Shown: positions 5,145-58,870 of the stretch, piece by piece | How positions within the stretch are numbered: the first letter of the stretch is position 1 | How the letters are laid out: each line of letters begins with the position of its first letter | Source of the DNA: Schmidtea polychroa | Lineage: Eukaryota | DNA length: 64,000 bases | Assembly (NCBI GenBank): GCA_044892525.1 | Contig: CM097888.1 | Location: forward strand, 56,358,001 to 56,422,000 | Direction: 5' to 3' | The notes under the pieces: generated by a model | Told to the model about the DNA's origin: nothing | Seen by the model: the letters and a program-made list of their open reading frames with translations, nothing else | Database searches by the model: none | Translations under genes and position numbers: made by a program

Positions 5145-5490
5145 TTAAATACTAAACGTAATATTATATTTATATTAAACATTGGAATTTTTATTGATAA
5201 TTGTAAGTAACAGACTATAAATAAAATATCTACTCATAATCTGAGGGACAGATGCACAAGGAACAAAATAAAACGGAAGCGTAATAAAAATCAATAGTGC
5301 AAAAAATAACAAAAGTGCAAAAATTAATTAAACATTTATAAAATGGGAAAATTATTATTGATCGGGGAAATGGGCATAGTTGATCACCAAATCAAGAGAC
5401 AAATCCAAAAAAAAATAAAAATTTAGTGAGGAGTCCCTAGAGAAAGTTATAATAAAATAACAAACTAACAAAAAAAAGTATTAATCGCTA

Positions 5491-5558
5491 ATGGAAAACC
5501 CGAGTTAATGAGAAACCCAAGTTAATAAGAAGCCCGAGTTAACGGAAAACCGGAACGA
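5491..5558 (+). repeat. 17-bp tandem repeat x4 (ATGGAAAACCCGAGTTA-like) inside an LTR-like dispersed repeat
   Basis: Four consecutive degenerate 17-mers. The same array occurs at 24251-24318, and the nearby motif CGACTAATTAGACA recurs at about 20489. Confidence 0.65.
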
Positions 5559-12400: not shown

Positions 12401-15400
12401 GAGGAGAACTTTTCTGTTGAGTTTAGTTCCTGAACCGGTAGAATCTTAACCTTATTATTACTAGGTTTATATACTTTTGTAAAACGCCACTATGTGACTT
12501 TAATACACATATTGAAAATACATGTAGTTATATTAGTAAAATTATATTTTAATAATCCGCATAAGGAGTATTATGTTATTAGACAAAAAAATATTTTAAC
12601 GAAAATATTATATTATACAAGTATCGTCGGCACATATTTTTTTCTGGTACGGTTTTATCAACCACTAGAATATGGGAAGTATTTTCCAAAATTTCGTTCA
12701 CTGTATCAACGGTATTTTTAGGTAAATGTTTTACACTTCTACGTTTTATATTTGGTATTACTAATTCTTGCACTAAATTCTTCAAAAATAATTTTCGTCG
12801 CGAATTTATTTATAAAAATTTATATAAATTTTTCCAAATAATTTCTGCAGCTATACCACATACGTCAACAAGATTATAAAACTGTGCAATCGGCCATCTT
12901 CTGGTTTTACGTTTTATCGAAAAAGCATGCCACTTTTGGTCTAACGTATCAACCCCACCTTTTGTACTATTATAATATAAGTTTACTTCAGACTTATTTT
13001 TATTTGTGCTGTCTACTACAGAATTGTGGTGCATTGCGGATAGCAAGACAACAGCACGATTTTTTTTGGTACGTAACTGACTAGCGTCATATTTTTTGTG
13101 AAACCAAAAATGTTACTTTCAACTTCTCTTCTTCTATTTGGAAGGAAATTTGGTGGTATACATCTTTTGTTCTTTCGTAAAGTGCCTACACATGTAAGGC
13201 CCTTGGATAATAAGCAATTTGCAAGTTCGTAACTTGTAAAATAATTATCGAATGTGATATTTCTATTTGATCGCTCAAATGGTTCACACAATTGTTCAAT
13301 GACGGTTCTACCCAAATTTACTGCTCGACCAGCTTGTCCTTGGCCAAGGTATGGTATGCCAAATAAAGGATAACTAGTCTTTACATAACCACCAAATCTT
13401 CATTCGTATTTATCTGGTTTGGAGGGGATATACTGTCGGAATTGAACTCTGCGTCTAAACGGGACCAACTGCTCATCGATTGTTGAATTTTTTATTATTT
13501 TTAGATATTTTTGCGAAGAATTTATAAATGATAGAATACATTGTTATCATTTGGAAACATCAATGTATTTGTGTATAATATCTAGTAATTAAAATAAAAT
13601 GTGATTCAAAGTCACAACCTAGTGTTAATAGGATTAATATGTTGAAATTTGACAGTAACTATATCGAATTTGCTAAGAAAATTTTTTCTTTATGGGATAT
13701 TTTGTAGTAATTTTAGTAATTATTATAGTAATTTTAAGCTTTAATTTTAAATGAAAATTCATATCTCTACTTTCATGTTCACTATTTTAAAGTAAGAAAT
13801 GCAGAATCCAGGACATTCGGGAACAAAATAAGCCAATACGCAAGACTTGTTTTCAACACTGTCCTCCGAAATTGGGGACGAATGATTATCTTATTATATA
13901 TCATATTTTTATTTATTTACCATTCTTTTTTAATTGTTTCGTTGTCGTAAATAAATGTCCCAAAATATATATGTTTTATGGTTTGTGTATATTTCTGTAT
14001 TTTTGTTTATATTTAATTTAATTTTCTATTCATAAAATATTTTTTTAAAGTTTTAAAGTGTTTGTAATAAATTTCTTTTATGAATAAAAATTATTTTTAA
14101 ATCTATAAAATTATTTTTTAATTTTTATTTTATCTAAATCTGTTTTATTTTAATTAAAAAATATCTATTCAGAGTACTATAAATGGAAATGAATGGGAAA
14201 AATCTCTTCGACTACGAAGGACATTGTTGAGATATTTAAACCTAGCTTGGATACTTCATATGCGAATTATTAGCGAACAAATCGCCTCAAGATTTCGCAA
14301 CGACGATTTCAAAAAATCTAAACGGAATCATGAATTTCGAATTCGTGACATGTTTGAGGAGATGAATCAGGATCAGAGTATATAAATTCATTATTCATAA
14401 AATATTGGGATCTGTATTAGGTTAACGGGAAAGGTTTCGTCAGATATATGATAATAATTTTAAAGACATTATTCTAAAACAACAAAACATTTATTCCTAA
14501 ATGTAGTTACCATTAACATCATCACTTCTTTCATGCGTTCTGCAAACTCATTCATTCACATTAGAAGTGATTATTATCACTGAATTATGGCTTTCTCAAC
14601 AACTCTAAATGACCGAGTTTCTTGTGGAAGTGTGCTAGAAAGATTTCAACAGAGCAGGTTGAATGAAGTAATATATATATATATATATAAAGAACATATA
14701 AGAACATTCTTCAAATTTCACCACTAATTTCTTTTCAATTGACATTGTATTTATTAAAAAGATTGACTATGAATCAGTAAATATATCGATGTTTTTTGAT
14801 ATTCACAAATTTTCAGCACTGCCTTTTTAATATACATATATTACATGCAAATAAAGAAACTCCAACTTTTAAAATGGTGTATGCTTGTAATATATATCAG
14901 GCACTAAATAACTTTAATAAAAACCGATTATATATATATAAGTTTGTTAGTAACTACATACGCGCAGAATTCAATAAAATTTATTAATCTTTATAAAGTG
15001 AAATAAACACTCAAAATACACCTAGTTAATACATTTTCAATTTTGGATTTTTGGGTTGGATGATTTTCATCATCAAAGCCTCACAAGTAATAGGTTTGCA
15101 ACCGTTTTTGAAACTCTTAGATAAAATTTTAAAATTGTAATGGGTGTAATGCCACATACATTAGAGAGACTGCTCGCCATCTCTGTATACGAGTTCGAGA
15201 GAAGACATTATTGAGCCTAAGATATACAAGTTAAAATTAGACATTTCAAATAAATAAAAAAGAGTTTTGATATATCAAGAATTACATTGGCTTTTCAAGG
15301 TCGTTTATGGTTATTAGGAGGTTCATCCTGTAAAACATTAAAATCAGTTTTTGTTTCCATAAATTTTATTTCAGTAAATATCAATATCAAATTATATCTT

Positions 15401-22630: not shown

Positions 22631-22703
<73 letters not shown>

Positions 22704-28740: not shown

Positions 28741-29672
28741 ATATTTACGATTATTCAACATTAAAATATTCATAAAACAGTGAATTAGTAAAAACAGTAC
28801 ATCTAATAGAAGGTTTCAGTGAATTTAACAAAGAATAAATATAAGAATTACATTGGATCAAATAGAATAAATCAAAATTAAACTTTTGAGCTTTTTATTT
28901 TGGAAATTGGGAAAGTCTATTCGGTTACAATAAACATTTTATTTTGTCTTTACATCTTTAATAAAGATTGTGGGATGATGAATTTACATGATCTATAACT
29001 ACAAAACACACAAAAGTTGGCTGCTAGAGTTTATCAATATTTTCAAATTTATTGAAAAAGATTTTTAAATATTTTGTTAAAAGAAAAATTGTCCTGCATC
29101 ACTTTTAAAAAATGCGGCTCATTTATAAATTAATTTAAAATTATTTGTACTTTATTCTAACAATGATCTGCAAATTTACTGGGATTTGTATTTAGCGGTA
29201 AATGGTACAAACCCAATAGCTTACAAAAAAATAATTAAATTTTAATTGCATATTTAACACTAAAAACTACCAAAAAACTACTCATTTTGACTAGTGTTGG
29301 TATAAGCAGCCAAAGTAAAAAAAACTTTTCTATAATTAAACAAACACAAAATAAAATTCATTATAATAAATATATATGTTTCACTAGAAAAGTCATAACA
29401 TAATTCATAAAAAAATAAAAAATTGATGATGAATTAATGATAAAAAGTAAAACCAATCATTTTGTCACATTTATCAGTAGCACGACGTTTAATACCATAA
29501 CAGTTGGTACCAGACACTTAATCACTATGTTACTTAATATCACGCCAACTCATCCCTGAGACACACAATCCCATGCTATACTCAAATATATGTTTATATA
29601 AGTATAATATACTTAGTATATATAAGTAGCTAACAGAAGTATATATAACAAATACTCAAATATATATAGATA

Positions 29673-30170
29673 TTGACTATGTATGCAATATTCGACTGTA
29701 CTAGCAAAGGAAGAAAAACTGTTATACATTGTAATTTTGAATTTACTAAGCATCGCGACAATGTTAACGGAACGACAGCGTGGCGTTGTATCAAGTCGGT
29801 AAAGTTTCACTGCAAAGCTCGGCTGACCACACGAGGTGATCAAATAATTAACATTCAAAACCAGGAGCATACCAACCAATTCAATGAATCCACTGCACAA
29901 GCTCGTAAGGCCGTATGCAAAATGAAGTCGGTCATGGATGGCATCGGAGCTACACCATTTTCTCAAGGAATTTTATCCGTAAATCTTACGGATGATATAC
30001 TAATGACACTTCCGAAGCGGTCAACTTCTACAGGGAGCGACCGGTGTTGTTCATCCATGAAAGAAGATGTATTCGCGGCTGCATAAACGCATTGAAGAAG
30101 TCGTTGCAGCATACGGTCGAAATGAAATCCTGGTGTTCCATCGTGCAATGTCGCATCTGTCTCACTCACA
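29673..30170 (+). mobile_element. Decayed MULE transposase, N-terminal FLYWCH zinc-finger part
   Basis: SKGRKTVIHCNFEFTKHR...TAWRCIKSVKFHCKARLTT...EHTN is a FLYWCH-type W-R-C...C-K-A-R...H pattern; the frame degenerates downstream. Confidence 0.7.
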
Positions 30171-30345: not shown

Positions 30346-30954
30346 CAGGGCTGGGGAACCTTTTCATTTCAAAAGGCCACATTCACTTATTTGATTTAAC
30401 ATAAGGCCGCAGTAAATAAAACGTTAACCCCCCTATAAACTATTTATTTTAATTCACATTATAAATTAGCCAAAACGCAATTTAAAATAATCTTTTATGA
30501 AAAAAATATATATTTACAAATCTAATTTATTATATTGTATATTGTTAAAAAAAATGTTATACGTACATAAAACATAATACATATATACATTGTACATCAT
30601 TAAAAATATTTGTTAATGTTTCATTTTATCAACTTTTAATGGCCTATTTGCTTCTGCTTTTTGTTAGAAAGCATTTGAATATTCGGTTCAAGCATAGACG
30701 TTCGCAGTATTAGTTGGTCTTCTAAATGTTGATCAGTTATTTGAGTTCGTAATTTGGACTTTATTTGCGTTAAATAAGAAAATGATGATTCACAGCAGTA
30801 AGTTGTTGAGAAGCAAGAAAGCATTTTTCTGGCATGTTGTCGAAGACGTGGATATTCTAAAGCAGTTTTCCGAATTTCAATTGGGTCTTTTTAAAAATTA
30901 CAAAAAAATAAAAAAATCGCTATTACTCAAAAGGCCGCAGGTTCCCCACCTCTG
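30346..30954 (-). mobile_element. Non-autonomous hAT (Buster/SPIN/Charlie-like) element retaining the transposase C-terminus
   Basis: TIR CAG(G/A)G(C/G)TGGGGAACCT and identical 8-bp TSD GCCATGAC (30338-30345 and 30955-30962). The ORF at 30636-30824 gives FSTTYCCESSFSYLTQIKSKLRTQITD, a hAT dimerisation-domain motif. Confidence 0.9.
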
Positions 30955-36704: not shown

Positions 36705-37535
36705 TCACGAAATCGGACACGAAACCGGGGAATTTTTCAAAGATTTTGAGCTCTTATTTTTTTCAATGCCTGAACTTATATTGTTTTCCACAACAGAATC
36801 AGTAGACTTACTTAACGATAACTGCAACCAAGCCACGCCCAATGTGGATAAATCGCTGTCTTTTGTTGAGCTTACTCTTAACGATTCTGAAACTCGATTT
36901 CGCTCAATTTTCACCGACGGAATGATAATGGCATCGCTACAACGACGCAAAGATTGTGCCAAAGTGAAATAGTCATGTTTCGGAGACAATTCTCTATTCA
37001 TACTATGTCTATATTTTTGATACCAGAGGCTTTTGAATATGTTTTCGATTCCGATGTTGTCTTTTGCTGATGTATTGATGAACTTTTCTTCATTGATATT
37101 TCGATAATGAAGCCATTTATCAATTGTCTCCTGTGAAATTTTTCTTTGATCCAAGCAATCTATTTTATTAGCAACAACCATTAGTGGGCTGTAGATATGG
37201 AAATCCTTTCCCCTTTCGCTTGCAATTTGTGTAAAAACATTGTCTAAATAATTTAAAGAATTATTATCGGTCACTGACATTACAAGAATGAAAGCTTGGG
37301 CTTTATGGATGTAAATGTTCCACATGGCAGGAAATTCATAAAGGCTTCCTGTGTCAATGAATTGCACATGGTATTCAATACCATTGGTGATAAATTGACG
37401 GTTAGTCACGTCTTCAATTGTAGGATTGTAGGATGTTGGAAACGACTGCCAAAGGAAGCTACTAAGGATAGAAGTTTTTCCAGACTTTCCACTTCCAAAT
37501 ATAACAACAGTTATCACATCTTTATGTGTCGACAT
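36705..37535 (-). CDS. Atypical Ras-family small GTPase, DIRAS/Rhes(RASD)-like, single exon, CAAX-terminated (276 aa)
   Basis: First ATG at 37535 (the track uses an upstream TTG). Motifs: G1 GSGKSGKT, G2 YNPTIED, G3 region DTGSLYEFPAM (the FPAM signature of DIRAS/RASD), G4 NKID, G5 TSAK, C-terminal CPIS. Confidence 0.88.
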   Translation of the reverse strand: MSTHKDVITVVIFGSGKSGKTSILSSFLWQSFPTSYNPTIEDVTNRQFITNGIEYHVQFIDTGSLYEFPAMWNIYIHKAQAFILVMSVTDNNSLNYLDNVFTQIASERGKDFHIYSPLMVVANKIDCLDQRKISQETIDKWLHYRNINEEKFINTSAKDNIGIENIFKSLWYQKYRHSMNRELSPKHDYFTLAQSLRRCSDAIIIPSVKIERNRVSESLRVSSTKDSDLSTLGVAWLQLSLSKSTDSVVENNISSGIEKNKSSKSLKNSPVSCPIS

Positions 37536-39829
37536 GAATGTCTGTCTGAAATACAATACTAGTAAGGTTACAAAAAATTATTTGTAGAAGATTAAACACA
37601 GAAAAAATATATAATTAAATAAAGACATTAAAATGTTGTTATGATCATAAATCAGTAAAATTTGGTAAACTAAAATGGCAACTGGAATAAATCATTAGAA
37701 CTTCAAATGCTGATAATTCAAAGATAGATTTGTGTATAAAGGTTATTTTCAGGTTTCGAAAAATCAAAGTTATATATTCAGAAGCGATTTAGTGGAGCAA
37801 GGTGACAATTAAAATTAATTACAAGTTATTATTCGGATATATTGTAACTATTGTAACTACTCATTTAATGTATATTATCNNNNNNNNNNNNNNNNNNNNN
37901 NNNNNNNNNNNNNNNNNNNNNNNNNNNNNNNNNNNNNNNNNNNNNNNNNNNNNNNNNNNNNNNNNNNNNNNNNNNNNNNNNNNNNNNNNNNNNNNNNNNN
38001 NNNNNNNNNNNNNNNNNNNNNNNNNNNNNNNNNNNNNNNNNNNNNNNNNNNNAAAACCTATGAGTGACATACTGTATGATGCAGTGTACGTCATAAAATA
38101 TTTAAAATAATTACTAAATAGGTTGTAGAAATAAAATTAAAAAGTTATATTTCCGAAAACTGTATGCGCGTATGTTTTAAGAATTTTAACCAATCAAAAT
38201 AAGAGAAGAATAAACCTTTAACATTTCTGTAAAAATGTTAACCATCCAGTGCCTAATTAATTTTCTTTATCCAATAAATTTGAGGACAAGCCGATGTCTA
38301 AGTAGATATAAGTAGACTTAAATGGTATAATTGTTCCTTATATAGTCACCCGAGACGAGCAGAGATATTGCATTTTTAAGAAAATATATACGGCTCGCCT
38401 CAACATGATATTGGAAACTACAGGGTTAAGTTAATATGGTATATTGGTTCACGAATAAAAGGTATTATCCCAAAAAGACTAAAACAAAAAGGCTCAATAA
38501 AAATAAAAATCTATTTTTAATTTCTACCTTTTCTTCTATTTTATTTTTATTGAACTCTTGATTTTGCCCTTTTTTCAATCATACTTTTCTCTGTCTAAAA
38601 ATGATATAATTCTGAGATTTGTATTAATACATAATAAAAATAAATAATTGTCTTTTCTGTGACATCCTTTATTATTTATTGTTACTGTAAACTATAAACA
38701 TGCTTATATATTCAAATGAATTACAACGTAATTATACTATTTTTATGATTACATTAAAGAATAAATTTTCTCATTTGCCCCATTTATCCGAATGGGAAAT
38801 TTTAATTTAACGTACATTTAAAATATAAGTGAACTAGATTAGAATAAATTATCGCTTTCTAATTTCAACTAGAAAGAATAGAAAATTAGAGTTTCCCAAA
38901 TTTTGTTAGATAGTAATTTCCTAATTCATTGAGAGCTCGCATTGAGAAAATATCAATTAAGAAGGCAGAAAGAATATGAAAATAGAGGAGAATACAGATT
39001 TATTTTAATTTTTTTATAACCTTATTAAAACAATTTTTCAATAATTATTAATTATTATTCATTGATATTATTTTCTTTGAAGAATAAATAAATTTAATAT
39101 TTGATAAATATAGAGTCAAGTTTCGTCAAGGAGTTATCGGAAAAAGGGATTCAATAGGATCGTTGACTAGCCCTTTTAGGATATATTTCAAACGGGGTTC
39201 TGTGGAACTCTGGGGTACTTTGAAAAATAATAATGAGTAACAATGAAAAATAAATGAACTTGAAAAAAAAGACAAAAATAGAAAAATGGTTTCTGAAATA
39301 AATAAATAACATAAAAATGCAACACTTGATGTTATAGCATTAAATGTCGTACCAGTGCCATGTTAATGAATCGAATAATATATTTTATATATGGCATATA
39401 TATTTTATGTCATTTTACAGTTTTGGGCATTTAGTTTCTGACAATATGCAAAACTCTCCTGCTCAGTATCTATGCATGGAAATTTAATAAAATTCAGTTT
39501 GGATAATATTTAGTAGTTTTGGATACATTTACGCAATAAAAATTACACTGATTCTTTATAAAAGCATCCATAAAATAGAATTAAATTAAAAATCAAAAGT
39601 TTGACATCTTGTTTAAAAGTGTTATATTGTTTTTATAAATTGTTTACGTGCAATTAAATTTATTAACAATGGATTTCACTCGTGTATCATTAATTATCTA
39701 TTACTACTAGAAAAAAAGGTTTGACAAATGAAATATCCACAACAAAAATAAACATGACTCTTATTAAAAAGAATGTTAGTCTGAGAACTTGTACTCATTT
39801 GGTCTATAAGCTAAATTTGGGAAACTTTA

Positions 39830-41475: not shown

Positions 41476-43863
41476 TCATTTCTGGAAAAATGTGGAAAAT
41501 GAAAATAGCTATTAAAATGTATTATATTTATTTTATTATTATATTATATTTTGATAATGCAACAATTAATGTTCAGATTATATTCATTTTGGTTGTAAAA
41601 CGTTTATTGTCTGCCTCTATGACATTTTCAAACGTATTACATTTCTGGTCTTCACTGGAAAAATAAAATTCTTTTTAGGGATCTAGTAAACTATTTTGTC
41701 ACATTAATATCTGCTTAAATAATCAGATTTTTTCAGTTGACTTCATCAAATAATTGGTTTTCTAAAGCCAATGTTGAAATAGTTATTAGTAAAACTATCA
41801 TCTATTTTCTATTTTTTTGGATTACACTGTAATAACCTTATTAGAAGGCACCATATATAATTTTGAAATGGACTCACTTTGGATACTCCTAAAACATTTC
41901 AAGTCCCAAAAAATATTCATGCACCTCTTTCAGTTAAGGCCAATCTCATTTTCCCCTTTCTAGATCTCTGAGTATCGAAATGAATTTCGTTTGACAACNN
42001 NNNNNNNNNNNNNNNNNNNNNNNNNNNNNNNNNNNNNNNNNNNNNNNNNNNNNNNNNNNNNNNNNNNNNNNNNNNNNNNNNNNNNNNNNNNNNNNNNNNN
42101 NNNNNNNNNNNNNNNNNNNNNNNNNNNNNNNNAATAAATAGGGAAAAAATGAAATTGAAAAATTAGAATGAAGTAAGAATTTATTTTAAAAATATATTTA
42201 ATAAAATTTCCCTATCAAACGATCATAAAACAGTCGATTAATGTTTTTCAATGTTTGCTTGGCTTTCCTATTGGAAATACGCATCTTTAATAATAAATGA
42301 AATTACTTTGTCGAATACATTTCTACATCTCATCAAATGAATCAGTAATATCAAACATTTCCCATTGAATGAGATGCGATAAAATAGATAGGGAAAATTG
42401 TAATGCTCCATTATCTCTCTATGGCATAACTTGCAATGATAAATATGATTTAGCAACAGCAAATAATTTGAAATATGATATGATAAATAATTTTTATTTA
42501 TTTTCATCGAGAATATAAATGTCAATTNNNNNNNNNNNNNNNNNNNNNNNNNNNNNNNNNNNNNNNNNNNNNNNNNNNNNNNNNNNNNNNNNNNNNNNNN
42601 NNNNNNNNNNNNNNNNNNNNNNNNNNNNNNNNNNNNNNNNNNNNNNNNNNNNNNNNNNNNNNNNNNNNNNNNNNNNNNNNNNNNNNNNNNNNNNNNNNNN
42701 NNNNNNNNNNNNNNNNNNNNNNNNNNNNNNNNNNNNNNNNNNNNNNNNNNNNNNNNNAGCAGCATTAATTAAATTTAAAACAATTAAATGATAATAAAAG
42801 CCTTGTTCGGTTTCCATTTGTTGTGGTGATAACAATGGAACCTAAAAAATTAATTTAATGATGACTGTTATATTTTATTTTTTGTCAAAAATTTAATGAA
42901 TTTGGAAAATAATTTAATGAATTTGTTAAAAATTTGAGGAATTTATTTGATTAAATATTTCTTGTTTGAATATTGAAGATTTCAGTGAAAGAACTTTAAT
43001 TGTATTTTAAAAAATTTAATTTAGTGTTGAATATAGATTATTTGTTTTTTCAAAAATTACTTGAATTATTTTTATATGAATTCAAATTGAAGTAATTCAA
43101 TGATGATTATTGGTAAAAGAAGTTCTGGGAAAACTCTTTTAATTAAAAGTTTGTTAAAAGATTTGAATAATGATGAAAAATTTCGTCTATCAAGTTAATT
43201 TAAATGGACTTTCACAAATGGAAGATAAATGCACTCTTAAATCCATTGAACCACTCAAAAGTATCTACTCTATCTCTCAATGCTTCATGTTCGATTGACA
43301 GTTTCTCATAAGATTTAACTAAATTACTGACGATTTATAATCCCGCTGGATATTTCAAATATTCACTGATTGGCTATTTCGTTATGTTATCTCCACAGTA
43401 CTCTATGGATAAACATTGTTCAAACGTCATATCTACAAATTCTCTTGAAGTTGAATGGAATTATAATCTATTAACAATCGCCGATAATAATGACAAACAA
43501 AGATTCCTAATAATGCAAAGAGTCTTAATAAACCCACGGATTAGATTACTTCTGAAAAGAAGATCAAAACGTTACAGACAAAGATAATCTAGTAAACGAA
43601 AGAACATTTATGGTTGTATTTCTGACAACAACCTGTTTGTAATCAGTTTGACTACTGAACAGAAAGGAATAAATGAAATTCTTAGATTAACCGATGTTGA
43701 AATTCCAAAAGTACTTGAACCAAAAGGAACATTTGAAATCCAAAACCCCTTTAGCTCAATTCCAATGGAACGACATCCAAACGAAGCCTTTTGCTGCGAA
43801 TATATTTAATACAAATGAAAATATTTTCGACAAAAGGCTCAAATCATTATTTAATTGTTTAAA

Positions 43864-43866
<3 letters not shown>

Positions 43867-43902
<36 letters not shown>
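43867..43902. repeat. (AAT)n microsatellite
   Basis: About 12 AAT units abutting the tail of the family-B repeat. Confidence 0.97.
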
Positions 43903-43903
<1 letters not shown>

Positions 43904-44040
43904 TTATAAGAACTTTTTTTTCAAATTTCACCACTGATTTCTTTTTCATTAACATTGTATTTATTAAAAACTTTGACTATGAATCAGTAAATATAGATGT
44001 TTTTAATTTATCGGTATCCCTTTTAAAATTATTTCATCAA

Positions 44041-44077
44041 ATTCACTTGAAAAAGGCAGTGCCGAAAATTCGTGAAT
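44041..44077 (+). ncRNA. Minimal type I hammerhead ribozyme motif with U3-A8 variant core (family B, best copy)
   Basis: ATTCAC-TTGAAAA-A-GGC-AGT-GCC-GAAA-AT-TC-GTGAAT: perfect 6-bp stem I, 3-bp stem II, GAAA, palindromic AATT stem III and a UC cleavage site. Confidence 0.65.
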
Positions 44078-44439
44078 CACTCCATAAAATTAATATATTA
44101 TACCCTATCACTTTCAATTGATAATAAAGCCATATCAGAAACCATTGGTAGGATTTTTGTAAAAAAAACTATTACATAAACACACAACCACACAGATAAT
44201 AACAAATAAAAGTATAAAATTTCACAAGAATAATTTTTTCCTTACAACGAGTATGTAAACAACGTCTTCTATTTCATGAAAACACGTAATTTTAGACGTT
44301 TTCACATTATTCCGGAATTTGCTCCAAGCTGCTGTTAATCTTGAATTTATATAAGCATCAGATGATGGGTATGATGGTACCATGTGCTACTACTATATTA
44401 TAGATTCGCTTGTTCACTGCAAACACCAAACACCGCTGA

Positions 44440-45520
44440 GATACATTCTCTATAGTGGTGGTTGGCGTGTAGAACAATTTCTCTCACCAATTTACTGTAT
44501 TAATCATCTTCATCAATTTACATTTATCATTTACTGAATTGCTTACAATAATGAATGTTTTTTGAAAATTTATTTTAGCCATTTTAGAAATGGCTTTCAT
44601 GTAAGATATGAGATCATTATTCAAGTTCTTAAATTTTACTTTTAGTCAACATTATAATTATAAATTATTTTTAATTAATTTTCAGGGATTTTTGATATTT
44701 TATGACAAGTATTTTCGAATATTTTCGAAAAAATGTGAGTTAGATATGTTTTTAATTATAATTAAATAAATGAATTACCAAAAATATGTACTTTTCTAAA
44801 ACATTTTGGGAAAAATCCCCGAATAATAAAAATAAAATAATTTTTGTGATTTTGTTTTCTGAGCTCAATATGAGGAGCTTCTTTCAGGAAAGCAAAGGAG
44901 ACATTGAACAAAATTCATCTGCTCTTGAAATTTCATTAAAAATATATTTTTAAAAATTTTCAGCGATCTTTTTTTATCCAAAAATTGTCTAAAATAGAAT
45001 TATTATAGAAATGTATCTCAGCGGTGCATTTCGATGAATCAAAAGTTTGTATGTGTTTTTTAGTATGTCTTGTGTTTGTGTTTGTGTGCAGTTTTTAATT
45101 TTTCTTCCACTTTTCAGATTTCTATAGTATAAGATGTATCTGATTGCACTCTAAATGAGAACATCAACGTGAAATCAGAGTAAGTATGTAATGTTTCCAT
45201 AATGTAAGATTATTGATTTTTTTGTTATATTATAGGAAACGGTTCTCAGTGGTGTTTGGTGTACATTTTCTATAGTGGTGGTTAGTGTGTACATCATTAA
45301 ATTGACTCACCAATTTAATAAATTTCATTTCTTGAAATTTATTTTAGCGAATTTTGAAATGGCTTTCAGGTAAGATACTTAATTTTAAGTAAATTTTAAG
45401 ACTTGAATTTTGATCCAAATAGATATGAAATCATTATTCAAGTTCTTAAATATTACTTTTATTCGACATTTGTGTTATAAATTATTTTAAACTAATTTTC
45501 AGGTTTTTAGGAATTTTATT
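44440..45520 (+). repeat. Dispersed or partly tandem repeat family studded with GT-AG intron-like segments
   Basis: Segment 44440-44690 recurs about 830-850 bp downstream (about 45270-45520). Segment 44860-45120 matches 58215-58475, and 45135-45262 matches 59590-59860. Confidence 0.75.
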
Positions 45521-47279
45521 GGTTATGGATTAAGCTGACAAATTTACATTTTGTTGTCACACGATGCGGCTCAGCTCAGCATACCATTTGCGATGTTACT
45601 TGCGATCATACATATAGAATCCATAGCTGTTGTCACAACACATAAGTGAATCGGTATCCTTGTTTGGTGCCCGGGTGTACCCAGTTTCCCTCTAACGCAT
45701 GACACTCAATGGGCTTGTTCATTTATATAAATATTGAATAGCTACTAAATTTTGTGGAGTATTCTATCAAAAGCAAAAGACTTTCATATTAAAGAAATGA
45801 AATAAACATAAAAATTTTGGTTTCAATTTTGAAATGAATTTTTGATATTTTTAGAAAATAAAATCATTCTAATTAAATATTATTATACAAACTTTATCGA
45901 ACAATAAAAATTCAAAACAAACAAATAACAAATAAACAACAAATAATTAAATTAATTGAAAATAATTTAATGCCTCATTTATTAAGTCATTAAAAATATT
46001 AAAAATATTCTATTTTAAATTGAGAAATTCCCAAAGATCTAATTTGATATTATAATTCGATAACTTGATAATTTATAAGAATTTTTTTTCTCTTTTTTCG
46101 ATTTGAAAATTTCTGAAAGCTTCATGAATTATTTAAAATATTTTTTTCAAATATTTTATCATTTACGTATTCATTTCGTATAGTTGGACGTGGAATATAA
46201 TTCCCTGATGTTTTATGAATGAAATAAAACTAAATTAATCTCTGGATTTTAAACTAATGGCGCGTTAAAGAATTTTAAAATATATATACTTTTGTCTAGG
46301 AGATTCAAATTATTTTATTTTGTTTTTGAAATTACCTGTCCATTTTTAGAAAACATTTCGTAAGCCCTCCATTCTTGCAAGAAACCTGTTGATTTAATTT
46401 TACTAAACTGTAGAAAAGAGCTTTAAATTCAAATCATAGTACTTTTGATCAGAATTCAATTTTTTAAAATTATTTATTTGGTTTTTACAAATTTATATTT
46501 TTTATTTAATTATTTGATTTATTACATTTATTAATTAATTATTTTATTTAATTAATTAAGTAAATTTATTTATTTCTTCATTTATTATAATTGTAGTAAT
46601 CAATAATATTACTATTATTAAAATTTTATTTATTTATTTTTTTATTTATTTTTAATAAGTTAAAACAATGTTGTAAACTTTACACTGTTAAGTATAAGAA
46701 ATTTTTAATTTAAACAAAAGTTGAATTAGTAACTAGTTTTAACAGAAAATAAAGCTAAGTTACCTTCAGATCTAAAGAATATATGAGTATGGATAATAGA
46801 ATGCTTACTAAAATCTAATTATTTAAGTTTGTTTTAATGCAAATATTTACAATAAAAAAAATTAGCTCCACAAATTAATTATTAATTCACATTTTTAAAT
46901 AAATAATTCACAATAAAAAAGCTCGTTTTTCTGACTTTAAACTATAAAACTGATGGGTGGAACTTTTTATTCTCATTTGTGGGATACTCACTGTTCCACC
47001 ATCGGTATACACTTTTTTGTAGACTTTATGAATGATATCAGAATTTATTAGACATTCCTTTTGATATTATAGTACTTTTATGACCTTGGAGTGAGTAGCA
47101 CTTTTATCGAAAGAACATTCATCTTTATATCGTCTTAACTTATTCTCATTCTGCAACTTTTCCGATTACTAAACATATTTTATCTGAGAATAATAAATCG
47201 TTCGCCGGATTATTTGAGATATCCAGGAGTCCATCACCAATTATTCTTGGGGAAAAGTGTGAGGGCACTTTTTTATCAA

Positions 47280-47316
47280 ATTCACTGGGAAAAGGCAGTG
47301 CCGAAAATTCGTGAAT
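47280..47316 (+). ncRNA. Degenerate copy of family-B hammerhead motif
   Basis: ATTCAC-TGGGAAA-A-GGC-AGT-GCC-GAAA-AT-TC-GTGAAT: stems intact, U3 and A8 retained, U4G and A6G lesions. Confidence 0.6.
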
Positions 47317-50300
47317 ATCAAAAGCATCTTTTTAATAATCGATTTCAAATACTTTTCCTCTTCATCAACCTGTTCAGTCATCATTGATCTGTTTTATCTC
47401 TTTTATTCCAGATATACAGTTTCAGGTGCAATTTCTTCAGGTTTTACTGGGCTATTGCTTGAAATATCATCATTAGTTTGAATTTCATCGTCTTTGCTAT
47501 CTTGGTATTCAATTCAACCTTTCATGTCAATATTTATTTGATCATTATCGTTTTCCAATTCTAATTGTTGTGATTCTTCAGATTTTACAATTAAATCTCG
47601 TAAATAAGCTTCATATTTGATCATAAAATCATTATATTCTGCAAGAAATTTCTTTATAACTAATTCCATTAAACAATTTGCGATGTAATCGAATAAATAA
47701 TTCCAACGAATAAAAACTTTTTTTATTTACTGCAATTTGAATTTACAACAAAATCACTTTAAACAAAAATTCCTGAACACCAAATAATTAAAAAATAGAT
47801 AATTCCAGAAATCTCAAATTAATTTCGAGAACCTCACGTTTATGTGCGCACACATCACCCCAAAAAAACTCAGCGACGCAGACACGACAACAACTAACAG
47901 AACTAAAAAATTGGTTATAGAATGAAGTGTTTGATATTTTCTTGCTTAAGATATTGATGGTATAAAATAATCCTCTTGTTTGAATATTGAAATTTTAGTT
48001 GTAAATTTTATGGATACAATCAACATACGGTCCACTCAATCTAGCACTAAGCATAATTGCAATTAAAATATCCGTAATCTTGGTGCTACGACGAAACATA
48101 GATTTGCTGCAGAAAGTTATCAGATTTTTTCTATTGTTGTCTAACTTCAATTTCAAAAATTTCTTCAAATTTTCAACGGTTTTTGGTTTATATTTAAGTA
48201 TTTAATGTATGATTGTGTTGTGTATAGGAAAATTGAAGAGCCCAGCCGAGTCACCAGTAAATAAACTGTCTCGGGACAGCTGGGGTGAATGTATGTAAAT
48301 AACAGGAAGTTATAATAATCAAATGAGTGGAAACGATAATAATATAAAATTACAACTTGTATTTAAAAGACAATAAAAATGATACGCAATTTAAGTTGTG
48401 GGGGGGGAAGATTGATGTTCTCAATGTTTCGAATCTCTTTGACTTCTTTATTTCTGTTTTCTTTTATTTCTAAATTTATTTGTTTGGCAATATTTTGAAT
48501 CACTTTGGCTTGTTTTCTCTTGTCACTAAGTTTATTCTTTGGATAATATCTTGACAATGATTTGAGTCAATTTGATTTATATTTACTTTTATTTCTACGT
48601 TTATTTTTCACGATTATCTTTTGCTTCTGCGTTTTGGAGTTATAGATTTTTTTAAGTTTTTTCAATTTATTATTTTATTTGTGATTTTACTATAGCGATA
48701 ATTTACCATTGTAAATTATCGCTATATAGTTTTTAATCTAATTTCCCAAACTCTACGGGAACGCTTATGTTCGAAAAAGAAAACTAAGCCTAATTGGGTT
48801 ATAGTAAAAAATAAATCATCTAATTTATCTTGATTAATATCAAAAATGACGATGTCAACATTCAAAACCTAACTGCGATGTCCATCAAATTCCTCTCCAC
48901 TCACACACACTTTAACAAAATTATCCATTTCAGAATGATCTCTAACAATCTGAATTCATCAACAAGAAGTTTCTGAGATAGAGTAACATTTTTGTATACC
49001 ATATTAGCTTGTTAATTTGCCTCAACATTATGCTTATCTTGACATATGATGTTGTAACAAATTTATAAATTATAGCATCTTCATGACTTCCGACTGCGTT
49101 AAATTTATATGAATTGCATCGGTTCACTAAATTAAATTATTAAATACAATAAATAATAATAATAAAATATTTACTTTTGATAATAATTTGTTAGCTTCAT
49201 AATTTATAATGATCAAATGAAAGCATTTTGTTTATATACCAAGTGATTACACACATCAAATTCCCAACCAATCACAATTGAGTAAGGAGTAGAAAATTAT
49301 TATTATTATTTTACTTTGCATTACATTTATTATCTAAAAATCCTTACATATATATCATGTATGAGGACAAAGAACAACTACTATCTAAGAGTTGTATATT
49401 GTGTAATTATTATATTATTTAATCATTGCCTAAAGATTAAATCAATGTTTTCCAGCTCTGGAGGCGTTGTAACATTTGAAATTTTCAATTTACATATAAA
49501 AAAGAATAAAAAATTGAATAAAAGGAGACGTGATGCCAAAGAATTTGCAAACCACTGGATTAAATAATAATATGAAGTTATACAATGACACAATTATTCT
49601 GTATTAATAGTAAGTAAAACTGTATATCTCTGCATATTATGTTTGTATTTTACTATGCTATTTTCACTATGCTATTAATTAATTAGTATTGTTTAAATAA
49701 CGTTGCTCAGGAAACTCATGTAAATTTAAAACTATTATATCCCAAGTCAACTGTAATTTTTGCAACATCCTAATACTTGTTATACCTGAAAAATATTAAT
49801 TTTAAATTTTTATATATTTTTAAATAATTTTGCTCTTCAAATACTTCTTCAGTATTTTTATTACATTTAACTTTTTATGTTATACACAATTTTTGTATAC
49901 CTAATTTTTATTTGCAACAACCCAGTTAAAAATGATAAATTGAAAATTTGATATTAATAAATCACATTTTAAATTAAATCATTCTTTTCTAAAATAATTT
50001 GATAAATTACTATTATTATAATTATTATTATAAAAATCATTGACGTAAAGGGTTTGCCTAAGGTGATGAGACTAATATTTCCACATCCGTCTCATTACAA
50101 GTAAGCAGTATATTTGTAATTTGGGTTTTTTTCATCAAAATATCCACAACGAAAAGGAATTTACATACAGATAAATGTGAACCTGGAAACGCATTTAAGA
50201 ACTTTTCACAGCGGGCCATAATTTTAAAGTATCTTCAAATAATTTTCCACACAAAATATGGGCAACCCCGGGTCCATACAATATAATCTTTACAATAAAA

Positions 50301-50992: not shown

Positions 50993-52026
50993 TTTCAATC
51001 GAATACATTTTTAAGCGGATATTTATTTATACTCATATGTTTTCATTAATTTTCTTCTTTTAATTTAAGTTAAAATTTAATAGTTATTTTCACCACATTA
51101 TTTTAATATCCTGGTATTTATCTATTATACTTTTAAAAATTGAAAATAATTTTTACGATTTTTTGTCTTCATTTTCACCAAACCAAAATAAAGAGTATTG
51201 GAAATATATGCCTCAGAAGTCATTCGACTAATGTTATTATTTTTTTAAGTCGTAGTACAAACAGTTACCTGACTAGTAATTATTTACTTTTAATTAATTA
51301 ATTAAAATTAATTAATTGTTCTATTTTTTATTCTAAGTATCAAAACAGATGAAATTTAATGAAAATAATTCTGATTATAAAGAATTTATTCAATAATAAA
51401 CATAGGAACCAAATTTTAATTGAAAAATAAGTTTGTAACTAGACAAAGCACATAAATAATATTTTAATGGTATAAAAATATTTTCATTTTTACACAAAAT
51501 CTGTTTAAAAAAATCACATAAGATAAGAATTTTTCTAAATTTTAATCCTGAAAACATGAAAAACTGACAGGATTCTATTTTTTCTAATTAATTTAATTTT
51601 AATTAATTTGAAAACGAACTAGTTAAATTAATTAATTTTTTTGACAAATCATAATAAAAGAAAATAAAAAATGTATTTTTACACATGAATCATTTGCTTG
51701 AAAATAAAAAGGTATGAAAATAAAATTATTACATAGATAATTTTTATAATTTAAACAATTTATTTCTAATTAAAGTACAAATGGTTTTCTCGTTAATTTT
51801 TTTCATTTTATGGAAATTTCATTAATTTTATTTGAAAAATATTATAAATTTATGTAAAAGAAATATGGAATAATTGAATAAAATATTTTTATTTAAATAC
51901 ATTGATACTTTTATAATTTTAATATTGATAATTATAAATTATAATTATAAATTATTTGAACTCCTTGGGAAATGAAACCAGAATATATAATTTCCAATTT
52001 CTGATTTTGTAATTTATATGAATTTC

Positions 52027-52140
52027 TTAAAAGGCAGTGCCGAAAATTCGTGAGTATCAAAAACATCGATATATTACTGATTTATAGTCTTCAAGCTCTC
52101 TATTTAATAAATTCAATGGAAAAAAAAGTTCTTATAATAC
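52027..52140 (+). repeat. Family-B hammerhead-plus-tail repeat copy, 5'-truncated
   Basis: AAAAGGCAGTGCCGAAAATTCGTGAGTATCAAAAACATCGATATATTACTGATTTATAGTC...GTTCTTATAAT. Confidence 0.7.
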
Positions 52141-52943: not shown

Positions 52944-55900
52944 TATAATGTATTGTTTAATTTTATTTTTTTTATGTTGGTCACGTCTGTTGGCGAAAGT
53001 TTTTATTTTTAAAAAAATAAAAGATTAAAAAAACTATATAGAGATAATTTACCATAGTAAATTATCGCTATACAAAATTCAAAAAATCCATATACGAAAT
53101 ATAGGAAATATTAAAGGACGACAACTCTTTCGAAAACTTATACAATACTTCAATAAATCGGAACTACTCGAATCCTGTTTGAAAGATATCCAATTGGGTA
53201 ATGACAAACCGTCTGAATTTCTGCGAAATTTAAAAGCAAAACTCGAATACTTGCAACCAAAAATAACAAGCACCGGGTCAAAAGAGTTCATCAAAGACCT
53301 ATTCATGCGCGCTGTGCCACCTGAAATACGCCGGATTCTAGCTGTTAGTAACTGCACAGACCTCGAAACCTTAGCAAACATAGCAGACAAAATCTACAAC
53401 GAAATATACCCGACAATATGTAGAACCTACCAAAACAAAAATTATTTCAAAAACAACGAAAACATACCCGTACACAATAGCTCAGAAACTACAGAAACGA
53501 ACAAACTCCTCTCAACTCTGGTAAAATAAATTTGACGAAATAATTATCGAAAACAAAAATCTAAGAAAAGACAACCGAATTACAAAGAAGAGAATCCAGG
53601 AGAACGCAATATTATGAAAAAGGCAAAATTATCCCAGACAAAATACAAGATCTGGCAGCCGCAGCAGCTTTGACAGAAACAAAACATGGAACAACACTAA
53701 TAAATGCACAAACCAAAACGATTGTTACTACCACAATAAATTTGGGAATAAAGCATATAAATGCAACAAACTTTGCTCCTTCAACATAGAAGAGTCGGGA
53801 AACATATAAAGTCACCAATGATAGCACCAACAATTGGTGACAGCCAAACATTCACGGTGCATAGCAATGGCCTTAATTTTCTTGTTGATTCAGGTTCAAT
53901 AATTTCATTGCTACCGAATTGCCTATATAAAAACACAAAAACTGAAACCGCGAATTTGTGCGCAGCAGACGGCCAATAGTGCTAGTTTATAGCGTATACT
54001 AGCGGCCATTATAGTGTTAATATTTCAAGGTAGTGTTAATAACTGTTTAATTAATTAAAACGTTCGGAAAACAAAACATCAACATCACCATCAACAACAC
54101 ACAATACAATTGGCAATTCACTATCGGTGAAGTCAAACAAGCCATTTTAGGAGCAGATTTCCTCTCAATCTTCAATCTACTAGTCGACTGTAAGAATGGA
54201 AAAGTCATACCAAACAATTTAAACAACATATACAACAAAAATAAACAATCCAAGAAACAAATCAATTGTGACATCGGAGTAATAACAGCCCAACACGGTG
54301 AAACAAAAACAAATAAAACAGAAACAAACTGGCATATACCTAATGAAATCGCAAAACTGATACAAAATGTACCAAATATAACAAATAAACTAGAGGCAAG
54401 CAATAACACAAAATGCATAACCGAACACATAATAATTAGCAACGGAAACCCCGTCCATGCAAAAGTCAGACAATTAAACAAAAATAAACTCGAAATAACT
54501 AAGAAAATATTCGACGAACTACTAGAATACCAAATCGTCAAACACTCAAACACAAACTGGTCATCAACTCTCATGCTTAAAAAAAAGCAAACGGTGAATG
54601 GCGAGCCTGTGGAGACTACAGAGCATTAAACAATATCACACAGCCGACAAATACCCCATTCCAATAATAAACGACATCATTAACAGATTTAACAAACCCA
54701 AAATTTTCAGCAAAATAGACTTAGGAAATCTCTATCATCAAATTCTGTCAGAACGGAAGACATAAAGAAAACTGCAATCATCACACCCATAGGACTTTTC
54801 GAATATAACAAAATGCCTTTTGGATTAAAAAACGCAGCAGCCACTTTCCAACGCTTTATGGACCAAATATTTCGAAATCAACAAAACACAGTCGCATACC
54901 TAGACGACATCTTGATAGCATCAGCAAACAAAACAGAACATATACAAAACATTAAAAACGTGTTCGAAATATTAAACAAACATGAACTAAAAATTAATAT
55001 TAAAAATGTGAATTTTTGAAAACAGAAATAAAATTTTTGGGGTATCTGTTAAACGAAAACGGAACAAAACCATTAGACGACAAAATCAAAGCAATCAAAA
55101 ACTATCCGTTACCCAAAACAACAAAAGATCTAAGACGTTTCCTTGGCATGATCATTTCTATCACAAATACATACCAAAATGTAACGAAATGCTAGCCCCT
55201 CTCAACGAACTGAACAAAATAAAGAGAAACATCAAAATAAATTGGAACGAAAAACTAATAACAGCTTTTGAACAGGCAAAAGAAAACCTGAAAAACGCAA
55301 GCATCCTAAGCTATCCCAACCAAGAATTACTATACATAGTCAACACAGACTGTTCGGGATTAGCAATGGGCGGAACGATATTCCAATAAGAAAACAACGA
55401 TAAAAGACCAATAGCCTTCTTCTCAAAGAAACTTAAAACTCACCAAATGAGATACTCCACTTTCGACAGGGAGTTATTAGCGTTACATGACACAATCAGA
55501 CACTTCCAATACCTATTAGAAGGAAGAGAATTCGCAGTGTATACTAATCATAAACCTTTAATAAACGCAATGAACATGAAAAACCCTTCACCGAGACAAA
55601 TAAGACAATTAAACTATATCTCACAATTTAATTGTAAAATAAAATATATAGCAGGTTCAGCTAACATAAGTGCAGATGCATTATCAAGAATAGAAACCGA
55701 TATCAATGCACTTAACATACCACCTATCATAGAGTTAGAAAATTTAAAAAACAAACAAAATCAAATAATAGCCGAGATTCCAAGGTTGAACTCACTCCAA
55801 TGGGAAGAAATAGACGGCATATGGTACGACACTTAAAACAAAAGGATCATAGTACCACCGGAAATCCGTGATCAATACTTCCAGAAATATCACAACATAT

Positions 55901-57346
55901 ACCACCCGGGAAACAAGGCCACATACGAACTTCTACATACCAAAGTCGTCTGTCCTTATATGAGAACGGTCGTAAAAACGTTCGTAAAAAACTGACCACA
56001 GTAGTATCAAAAGAACAAAATAACAACAAAACAATTCAAAACAACAGTAGTAGAATTTCCAAGTTCTGAACCATTCGAAACGATACATATTGACATAGTC
56101 AGACCTCTACCCCCAAATAATAAACACAAGTATTTATTAACAATAATAGACCGAAAAACAAATTGGTTCAAAGCCATACCCATAAAAAAAATATCAGCAG
56201 CAAAAATATGCAGTAAATTAGAACTAAACTGATTCGCACGGTATGGCTGCCCAAAAACAATAATCAGCGATCAGGGTAGACAGTTCGAATCCGACATTTT
56301 CAAAGGACTTTGCAACAAATATAACATCAACAAAATCAGAACAACGGCATACAACCCACAATCAAATGGAAAAGTGGAGAGACTACACCTATCAATAAAA
56401 CAAGCAATCAGAACAAAAACGAATAATAACCACAACTGGTTAGAAAAATTATCAGAAATACTAATAGGATTACGAAACAATCCTTCAAGCTTAAACAATA
56501 AAAGTCCTAGCCAATCAGTTTTTGGACACAATACAAACCTACCAAACTTAAAGGATGAAAACGAAAACAAGATAAAAACAATCGATAAAGAATCACAAAT
56601 ACCCAAAGAAAAAAAGCATTCTAAAAAACAAAACACTCAACAAACTCAAAACCAAACAGAACTAATAATAGACATGGTCTTAGTAAAGAAACTAGCGGAT
56701 TTAAATCAAAGTACGGAAGCCCATACAGACTGTTAAATATGTACAAAAACGTCGGCACAATTTTAAAAGACAATAAACAAATCAAAATAAACATACGCAG
56801 ATTAAAACCATATCACAAAAACAAAGCACCCACATTCAACGATCACCACAACCAAAACCCTCAAAACAACCACCCAAAATACAAAACACAAGAACAAACA
56901 GAAACACAGAAAAATCAGAAACACATCAGATTCAGCGAAAAAGACTCAACAAAATTCTTCGACAATAACACAACAATCACATCAGAATACAAAAAGCGCT
57001 ATAGTGATTACCTCAAATAAAAAACACATGTACCTACAAGGTTTAGTTGTACAATTTTTATGATTTTTTTGTTGTAAAACACAAAACAAAAACACAACTA
57101 AGCCAACAGATGTCATAACAACATATCTTTTTCATTTGTAAATATGTAAATTCGTTAAAATGTTAATCTCCGGTTTTAAAGGGGGAAGTTTTATAATGTA
57201 TTGTTAAATTATATTTTTTTTATATTGGTCACGTCTGTTGGCGCAAGTTTTTATTTTAAAAAAAATAAAAGATAAAAAAACTATATAAGGATAACTTACC
57301 TTAGTAAATTATCGCTATACAAAATTCAAAAAATCCATATACGAAA
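52944..57346 (+). mobile_element. Decayed Ty3/Gypsy LTR retrotransposon (element 2)
   Basis: Direct repeats 52944-53099 and 57192-57346 (about 93% identical by hand) and PPT AAAGGGGGAAG at 57178-57188. Gag fragment IQLGNDKPSEFLR; protease FLVDSGS; RT PFGLKNAAATFQR and YLDD; RNase H YSTFDRELLAL; integrase IHIDIV and SDQGRQFES. Many stops and frameshifts; the PBS and gag start are deleted. Confidence 0.92.
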
Positions 57347-58214
57347 ATTAATTAAAATATTCAAAAATATTAAAAAACTTATACCAATTTGCTTTGCTTA
57401 AAATTTGAAAGATTGTAAAATATTTTTTGGGAATAATTGTTTGGAATATCAAAACAAGCTCCACGAGAATTTCCCGAACTTTCTATATAAAGTGAAAAGT
57501 AATCATTCCACGAAAAGTGATCATTTTCTCGATAAAGTGCGTTTTATTATTACATTTCATGATAATAAAACTTGTTACTTAAATTAACCGTTATTTTTGG
57601 TATTATATCCATCGCACTACATACACGCACCCCGATTGTCCCACAACATATTTTTATAGGTGACTATATTGGGTTCTACTACTCTTTTTATTATACATAC
57701 ACAACATATACATATATATTTGGTTATAATTGGTTATAATTTGATAACAACCTATAACACTAACTATTAATGTTCTCTCTAAGAAAAGAGGGTCGCTGTG
57801 TGGAAATTCAAAAGGCTGAGCCGGCCAAATCACCAAATGTGCAAGTGCAACATCACTTTTACACTAATACAAAATTGATGACTTAACATTCGTTATCGAC
57901 ATTATTTTTGAATTTCATTTCTGTTATTATTTTAACAAATTTAAATTAAATTCAAATAGTAAATATATTTTTGGTCTGATGATTGTGATAACTGTACACG
58001 TACACAATTACAAATTAAACAGTTATTAACACTACCTTGAAATATTAACACTATAATGGCCGCTAGTATACGCTATAAACTTGCACTATTGGCCGGCGTT
58101 TTTTACTCTTTCGAAAAATCGTCATAACTATTGTAATAATCGTTTTAAAATAAAGATTTTTTTTGCATTCTACGTAAAATGAAACAAAAAGTACGAATTA
58201 TATATTAAGTAGAT

Positions 58215-58870
58215 GTTCTTTTCTGAGCTCAATATGAGAGGATTCTTTCAGGAAATCAAATCTGGATTGAAGACCTTGAACCAAATTCATCTGCTCTTAA
58301 TATTTTCATTAAAAATATATTTTTAAAAATTTTCAGTGATCTTTTTTTTCTAAAAATTATCTAAAATAAAGTTAATATAGAAACGTATCTCAGTGATGCA
58401 TTTCTACGAATCAAAGGTTTGTATGTGTTGCGCTTGTGTGCAGTTTTTAATTTTTTTCCACTTTTCAGATTTCTATAATACACCAAATCCCGAAAGTTAA
58501 AAGTCTTTATAATATACGTTGGTGTGTTCATCAGTTGATGACTCACCATTTATGAGAATGTGAAGTTATTTACTTCATTTCATTTATTCAATTTGACAAG
58601 TTTTTTTTAATTTAAGTAACTTTTAAGGTTTGAATTTTGATTTTATATAATTATGAGATCATTATTCAAGCTCTTAAATGTTACTTGTAGTCAACATTTT
58701 GATTATAAATTAATTTTAATTAATTTTCAGGGTTTTTTAGGATTTTTATAACATTTTTTATGAATTTATTTGGAATTATTTCGATAAAATGTAAGTTAGA
58801 TATATTTTTAACTTAAAATAAATAAAGAAATCACCAAACACATTTATTTTTTAAGACAAAAAACTATGAC
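58215..58870 (+). repeat. Second copy of the intron-studded repeat family
   Basis: Co-linear similarity to 44860-45120 and 45290-45520 (for example TTCTGAGCTCAATATGAG, AATTCATCTGCTCTT, GATCATTATTCAAG). Confidence 0.75.

Follow-up and report, generated by a model that had tools for sequence, protein, structure and literature searches.

A short dispersed repeat of Schmidtea polychroa, headed by a minimal U3-A8 hammerhead motif and bearing insertion hallmarks of Penelope-type elements

Introduction

According to the available parts of Cervera and de la Pena 2014 (PMC4209133), minimal hammerheads sit in the pseudo-LTRs of Penelope-type elements (PLEs), where H after A9, the G10.1-C11.1 pair and a palindromic 15.2-16.2 are conserved, and where monomers are inactive and dimers weakly active. 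A U3-A8 descriptor yielded about 1,300 matches in S. mansoni, mostly single motifs, and opposite-strand hammerhead pairs 100-700 bp apart are also described (PMC4209133). In the accompanying 56-row alignment (PMC4209133 Fig. S3), two rows have U3-A8, the core of the PLE-linked S. mansoni(4) motif reads UUGAAAAA, stem III of Crassostrea is AAUU, and the C. briggsae row has a 3-bp GGC/GCC helix. Natural U3-A8 cores had already been reported by Perreault 2011 (PMC3088659), and two-pair stems II are described there as common among microbial hammerheads.

As for the mobility of PLEs, inverted 5'-truncated neighbours and a bias towards microsatellites are given as traits of these elements (PMC8557442). 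In Poseidon of Anolis carolinensis (PAc; Frangieh 2024, PMC11167929), reverse transcription starts 111-118 nt into the ORF, the hammerhead cut lies at +26, the endonuclease prefers ATT and hammerhead cleavage is assisted by protein; as far as the available text of that paper goes, hammerhead mutants leave insertion unaffected and no RNA ends fall at the cut site.

Here, a 37-nt motif of Schmidtea polychroa is described in its surroundings of 64,000 nucleotides (hereafter the window). The motif forms the 5' end of a dispersed repeat of about 146 nt, and this repeat is read, with a probability of about 0.78, as a non-coding, non-autonomous planarian derivative of a PLE, corresponding roughly to a solo pseudo-LTR end with a minimal type I U3-A8 hammerhead at its 5' side.

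Results and Discussion

Anatomy of the hammerhead motif

Re-reading of the window showed that the letters at 44041-44077 (+, 37 nt) match exactly the motif quoted in the preceding sequence-only reading, which had proposed a minimal hammerhead of the Penelope type, having a U3-A8 core, an extra nucleotide and a 4-nt palindromic stem III. The sequence agrees with this proposal. Within 44047-44067 the Watson-Crick 3-8 pair and the invariant U4, G5, A6 and A9 as well as G12, A13, A14 and A15.1 are all present, and the complete motif additionally has the extra nucleotide between 9 and 10.1, the G10.1-C11.1 pair, AAUU in the place of helix III, UUC as the NUH triplet and an open 6-bp stem I, flanked by a U-rich sequence on the 5' side and an AU-rich one on the 3' side. 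Judged by its letters, the motif thus carries every feature of the PLE minimal-hammerhead consensus contained in the available parts of PMC4209133. The coordinates of the individual elements and of the related copies are collected in Table 1.

Table 1. Elements of the motif and segments of the repeat unit in the window.
Feature	Position	Strand	Basis or remark
(TAA)n microsatellite adjoining the 3' end of the inverted copy	43866..43903	.	
5' part of the unit with the window's sole intact minimal hammerhead	44036..44077	+	copy ends directly after stem I
Stem I, 5' arm, pairs with 44072-44077	44041..44046	+	fold and descriptor
Core U3 U4 G5 A6 A7 A8 A9 and one extra A	44047..44054	+	descriptor, alignment of copies
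Helix II, 3 bp including G10.1-C11.1, 3-nt loop	44055..44063	+	fold and descriptor
G12 A13 A14, palindromic AAUU (15.1-16.1), C17 at 44071 (predicted cleavage nucleotide)	44064..44071	+	descriptor, alignment of copies
Stem I, 3' arm	44072..44077	+	fold and descriptor
Copy with both stem I arms and a broken core	47271..47328	+	ends 12 nt past stem I
Copy devoid of left arm and core; tail shortened by an internal deletion	52029..52136	+	
Copy lacking left arm and core, full tail	14697..14828	-	3' end 8 nt from (TA)n 14671-14688
Unit copy in inverted, head-to-head orientation to the motif	43905..44035	-	self-comparison

The position of C17 as the cleavage nucleotide is predicted from hammerhead numbering, and the AAUU palindrome is modelled as pairing only in a dimer. 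The monomer folds as drawn, its stability being unexceptional (z -1.7).

A minimal-hammerhead descriptor was composed after the motif had been seen; it asked for C3-G8 or U3-A8, a 3-8 bp helix II, a palindrome as stem III and H17, and it tolerated an extra nucleotide. This descriptor matched the window once, at 44047. Among 100 dinucleotide shuffles, none matched with stem I of at least 6 and one matched with stem I of at least 4. No hammerhead family was among the seven matches to the covariance models of Rfam 15 at E<=5; the Rfam hammerhead models may not cover the minimal PLE forms.

Comparison with described hammerheads

The motif resembles those of the Cercyon PLEs of S. mansoni (Sm3, Sm4; PMC4209133) in its flatworm host, the U3-A8 pair, the core octamer at 44047-44054, which is identical to the PLE-linked S. 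mansoni(4) motif, the extra nucleotide after A9, the G10.1-C11.1 pair, the 4-nt palindromic stem III, and the occurrence of dispersed motifs that are mostly single, with some opposite-strand pairs. It departs from them in helix II, which together with its loop occupies 9 nt here as against 12 and 21 nt in the Sm3 and Sm4 rows, in its 6-bp stem I, and in that no linked PLE ORF was found for the planarian unit in the window. In all 56 rows of Fig. S3 of PMC4209133, compared by eye, the helix II hairpin takes at least 11 nt, so that the 9-nt hairpin of the planarian motif is the shortest among the published examples compared. The suggestion that the motif combines its deviations in a novel way is not supported: each of them has been published, including the core octamer in a PLE (PMC4209133; PMC3088659).

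A PLE hammerhead of Schmidtea mediterranea shares the planarian host, the minimal type I organization and a stem III palindrome consisting of A and U only (PMC4209133 Table S1, Fig. S3), but belongs to a different family, which has C3-G8 in its core and a helix II of 5 bp with another sequence. PAc is similar in that the 3' end of its insertions lies ~90-110 nt past the hammerhead cut, in its preference for ATT-rich targets and in its use of an uncleaved RNA template (PMC11167929); it is autonomous, with an ORF that starts inside the hammerhead, whereas no PLE ORF accompanies the planarian unit in the window. Short, non-coding, high-copy elements with PLE-related ends are also represented by the non-LTR retrozymes (PMC7229834; bioRxiv 10.64898/2026.07.22.740005) and by the MRC1-type elements of Chlamys (PMC8557442). 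The planarian unit differs from the retrozymes in that its hammerhead is minimal, not canonical, and that tandem arrays were not seen, while the Chlamys elements, according to the available part of their description, mostly lack hammerheads. A literature search with three 13-nt pieces of the unit found no report of the planarian family, which Lunse et al. 2017 may list. The novelty lies in the planarian family as such, in the marked shortness of its helix II and, as discussed below, in its fixed 5' boundary.

Copies of the motif within the window

A 25-nt piece of the motif matches the window four times (44051+, 47290+, 52029+, 14803-) and has no match in 100 shuffles, in agreement with the motif and its three relatives listed by the sequence-only reading. 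Altogether, the window contains five segments of the unit at four loci, and only one of the five has an intact core. The eight nucleotides 5' of helix II read TTGAAAAA in the 44k copy, TGGGAAAA in the 47k copy, TCTTAAAA in the 52k copy and ATTAAAAA in the 14.8k copy. A8 is common to all four well-preserved copies and is, for this reason, not a private mutation; U3 occurs in both arm-bearing copies (44k and 47k). Hence the statement that the arm-bearing copies have T at position 3 and A at position 8 is correct for both of them, but the core of the 47280 copy is broken, with G at both U4 and A6. Because of these two substitutions, the 47k copy is predicted to be incapable of acting as a hammerhead.

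The 52k and 14.8k copies retain neither the left arm nor the core UGA; the 14.8k copy sits between bestrophin-like exons, on the opposite strand. In the inverted copy, the 3' tail occupies 43905-44004 and matches the 14.8k copy at 88%. Next to it, at 44005-44025 (-), lies a decayed hammerhead with a score that was reached by 13 of 5000 random 36-mers of the window. Three segments drop homology at one common point within the core, which may reflect either a core-less subfamily or chance. The points at which homology is lost lie at 52008-52032, 14829-14845 and 44026-44035, and the AT-rich sequences upstream of the 52k and 14.8k copies are weakly alike. At 14803-14827 (-), the two differences from the other three copies are both CpG to TpG changes.

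Most copies within the window are dead, and the intact 44k copy has no intact partner there; an HMM search of the window revealed no further copy below E 0.47. The U3-A8 core had also been called naturally covarying. This is true with respect to the canonical consensus, but not within the family, as none of the five segments is a C3-G8 copy. Covariation in stems I and II was likewise absent among the window copies: there is no double-sided change, and the sole change in stem II (C to U) gives a G-U pair.

The repeat unit and its ends

The motif is not free-standing, but forms the 5' end of a dispersed repeat with the insertion hallmarks of PLEs, which the sequence-only reading had missed. Self-comparison showed that the 14.8k and 52k copies run on into a common tail closing with a 9-nt motif, and the length of the unit, ~146 nt, is the sum of 19 nt before helix II and 127 nt to the shared 3' end. 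All three matches to the 9-nt motif in the window are ends of the unit; since three matches were reached in 8 of 100 shuffles, it is their placement and not their count that is informative. C17 is separated from the 3' end of the unit by 110 nt. An ATG in the tail opens ~17 codons in two of the copies.

The reported locus is a head-to-head pair made up of the motif and the inverted copy. The truncated inverted copy that adjoins the 5' end is one hallmark of PLEs; another is insertion into microsatellite or AT-rich DNA with no clear TSD. Two of the three 3' ends of the unit have a microsatellite within 15 nt, namely the (TAA)n tract that starts at 43866 and the (TA)n tract that starts at 14671, compared with 0.34% of window positions, and the (TAA)n tract next to the inverted copy is likely to have been the insertion target. 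At the boundaries of the unit the only candidate TSDs are AT-rich matches of 5-8 nt, none of them convincing. Nor were TIRs found, the best end-to-end match being 10/11 nt and internal. TG...CA termini are absent from the unit, and neither of the two LTR pairs in the window includes it.

Abundance and boundaries in public contigs

Contigs from four of 19 public runs were aligned to 43906-44140 at 80% likeness; one of these runs (X13) bears a different organism label and another (X1) may be the source sample. The numbers of aligned contigs (6096, 11879, 652 and 203 in the four runs) bear out the earlier expectation of a high copy number, and the family is abundant. The unit had no match among metagenome contigs, viral contigs and prokaryote genomes, and no blastn match among phages.

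In all four runs, the loose letters behind 44077 give the consensus of the tail. On the opposite side, loose ends occur before 44036 and 44039 in 108 and 131 contigs of X1 and in 191 and 220 contigs of X5, respectively, and it is from the loose ends of these overlaid contigs that the left boundary of the motif copy (44036-44039) was taken. These ends are long and mutually unrelated (agreement 0.43-0.47, from 24 of 444 rows); therefore many loci start 2-5 nt upstream of stem I. Such a fixed 5' boundary is atypical of randomly truncated PLE copies and counts against the PLE reading.

Of 81 joints in all, 15 were listed, five of which represent the normal continuation of the motif into the tail. 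In the other ten listed, an inverted tail whose cut falls within 43939-43995 meets a forward copy that starts within 44028-44047, which corresponds to the inverted 5'-truncated neighbour described for PLEs (PMC8557442); the sides of the joints are only 20-30 nt long, and some joints may be spurious. Substitution rows cover 43940-43972 only and none falls within 44036-44077, but since every row has a run with at least 31 letters to the end, their absence over the motif is probably an effect of a filter near alignment ends and not a sign of conservation. The ratio of motif depth to tail depth is higher in X13 than in the other runs, although contig depth cannot rank the parts of the stretch.

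These data bear on whether the unit represents a non-LTR retrozyme monomer that is also present in head-to-tail arrays and gives a ~150-nt circular RNA, the window holding its dispersed offspring. The size of the unit is just below the 170-400 nt of metazoan retrozymes (PMC7229834), and families of this kind can consist mostly of monomers and derive from the ends of PLEs (bioRxiv 10.64898/2026.07.22.740005). However, the window contains no tandem array of the unit, a joint of the tail end to the start is absent from the 15 joints listed (81 in all), the left flanks are mutually unrelated, and the retrozymes in the available part of PMC7229834 bear canonical, not minimal, hammerheads. An origin of this sort is extremely unlikely.

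Search for a PLE coding partner

No domain of a PLE reverse transcriptase or GIY-YIG endonuclease was detected among 75 and 60 window frames sent to Pfam (at least 50 aa around the copies and at least 65 aa elsewhere, with some frames of the two Gypsy regions left out), and a motif scan of the window gave no YIG signature. The RT matches in the window belong to two Gypsy-type elements. The 3.2-kb spacing between the 44k and 47k copies was considered as a full PLE and rejected: the interval is occupied by a mir-753-like precursor and has no Pfam match. The PLE assignment is suggested by architecture, with no ORF in the window.

The missing ORF, together with the fixed 5' boundary, would also be compatible with an unrelated short element, such as a SINE of another retrotransposon, a MITE, a Helitron or an LTR fragment, in which case the fit to a hammerhead would have arisen by chance in AT-rich DNA. 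The descriptor was post hoc and very many windows were scanned, which leaves some room for such a coincidence, yet an equal descriptor match appeared in none of the 100 shuffles. The lack of TIRs and TSDs, the ends other than TG...CA and the location outside both LTR pairs do not suit these element types, and two features that do not depend on the motif, the inverted truncated partners and the 3' ends next to microsatellites, are typical of PLEs. An unrelated element with a chance fit is considered very unlikely.

Possible mobilisation and activity

If the unit is indeed a PLE derivative, an RNA starting a few nucleotides upstream of stem I (~44036) would bind, in trans, the RT/GIY-YIG protein of a PLE, and this protein would nick AT-rich or microsatellite DNA. 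Reverse transcription would then begin ~110 nt downstream of C17, giving rise to the common 3' end, while incomplete synthesis and strand switching would lead to truncated and inverted copies. Because the first nucleotides of the copies lie before the hammerhead instead of at its cut site, the template would be the uncleaved RNA. The hammerhead itself would cut after C17 only as a dimer formed via AAUU, probably slowly and with the help of protein.

In a toy duplex, the AAUU helix is weak, with -0.6 kcal/mol compared with -3.1 for ACGU and -3.9 for AGCU. In a nearest-neighbour model that covers secondary structure only, the dimer folds with -10.6 kcal/mol and two monomers with -15.0 kcal/mol, which makes the dimer the less stable state. 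Given the weak AAUU helix and a dimer that is disfavoured against two monomers, cleavage is predicted to be about an even bet and its extent probably low; the chance that a dimer would cleave measurably is put slightly below even.

With such modest prospects of cleavage, it has to be considered that the unit is PLE-derived but its hammerhead is a dead relic, carried along since the surrounding region is the protein-binding and promoter part of the template. A working core is missing in four of the five window segments, the starts of the copies precede the cut site, dimer formation is energetically unfavourable, and insertion of the anole PLE is independent of the hammerhead, with no RNA ends at the cut in the available text (PMC11167929). 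Nevertheless, the intact copy retains every invariant core base along with the compensatory pair, and contigs that lack one nucleotide of the A-run are rare (1.3% of the depth in X1, 0.7% in X5, depth being a rough weight only). In addition, PMC4209133 accepts as members motifs whose AAUU or AUAU stems are just as weak, and natural U3-A8 cores were reported active (PMC3088659, citing another paper). On balance, a dead relic seems unlikely.

A more far-reaching version of the PLE reading would make the unit a discrete PLE-mobilised SINE of ~146 nt with a fixed start, in which U3-A8 is both fixed and active and which bears the most compact of the listed PLE-type hammerheads (25 nt between the stem I arms). 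This version is distinctly unlikely. If it were true, dispersed monomers would pair via AAUU between neighbours in one pre-mRNA or in trans, and host transcripts of this model organism for regeneration would be cut at numerous places.

As a PLE derivative, the repeat extends the known PLE minimal hammerheads by a very abundant planarian family that seems not to have been listed so far. Its many copies in the full assembly would amount to a natural mutational scan of the U3-A8 core, and the unit would offer a compact template for examining the role of PLE hammerheads, since insertion in vitro does not need them. The family would gain greater weight only if cleavage of host transcripts were demonstrated.

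Genomic context

The window is AT-rich animal DNA with a GC content of 0.20-0.36 per 2 kb. It contains two mir-753-like precursors with scores of 60.4 and 51.5 bits, both of them below the Rfam gathering score of 62; mir-753 is a planarian family. These mir-753/bantam-like precursors (45392-45452 and 58619-58680, +) lie within a duplicated and rearranged region (44.6-45.5 kb versus 58.3-59.9 kb), which includes a 135-nt tandem pair.

Close to the motif, at 43312-43806 (+), there is a decayed frame similar to ribosomal protein S6e (Pfam E 4.9e-5, below the curated cut-off), which has an in-frame stop, is intronless over the stretch and ends ~60 nt before the (TAA)n tract at the inverted copy; it is possibly a processed pseudogene.

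Two Gypsy-type elements were recognised. The first (15312-19888, -) is a young LTR retrotransposon located between bestrophin-like exons; its 233-nt LTRs are identical, and its pol frame spans 1042 aa. The second (52944-57346, +) is older and frameshifted, its LTR segments being 89-93% alike, and a 36-nt palindrome from its LTR recurs on its own at 48691-48726. An 83-nt sequence is present in two inverted copies (53970-54052 and 58013-58095, 99% complementary), one of which interrupts a Gypsy-type pol region while the other lies outside the element, and this pair looks like a recent small insertion element.

The bestrophin-like exons are found at 9546-9645, 10199-10390, 14158-14382 and 21108-28737 (+), and one exon-sized segment of 100 nt occurs twice in this region (89%). 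Further frames comprise the remnant of a DDE_Tnp_1_7 transposase (12813-13399), a FLYWCH domain (29670-30083), a hAT remnant (30639-30890) and an intronless frame of the Ras family (36708-37577). Finally, one 17-nt minisatellite is present at two distant places, 5487-5555 and 24230-24318.
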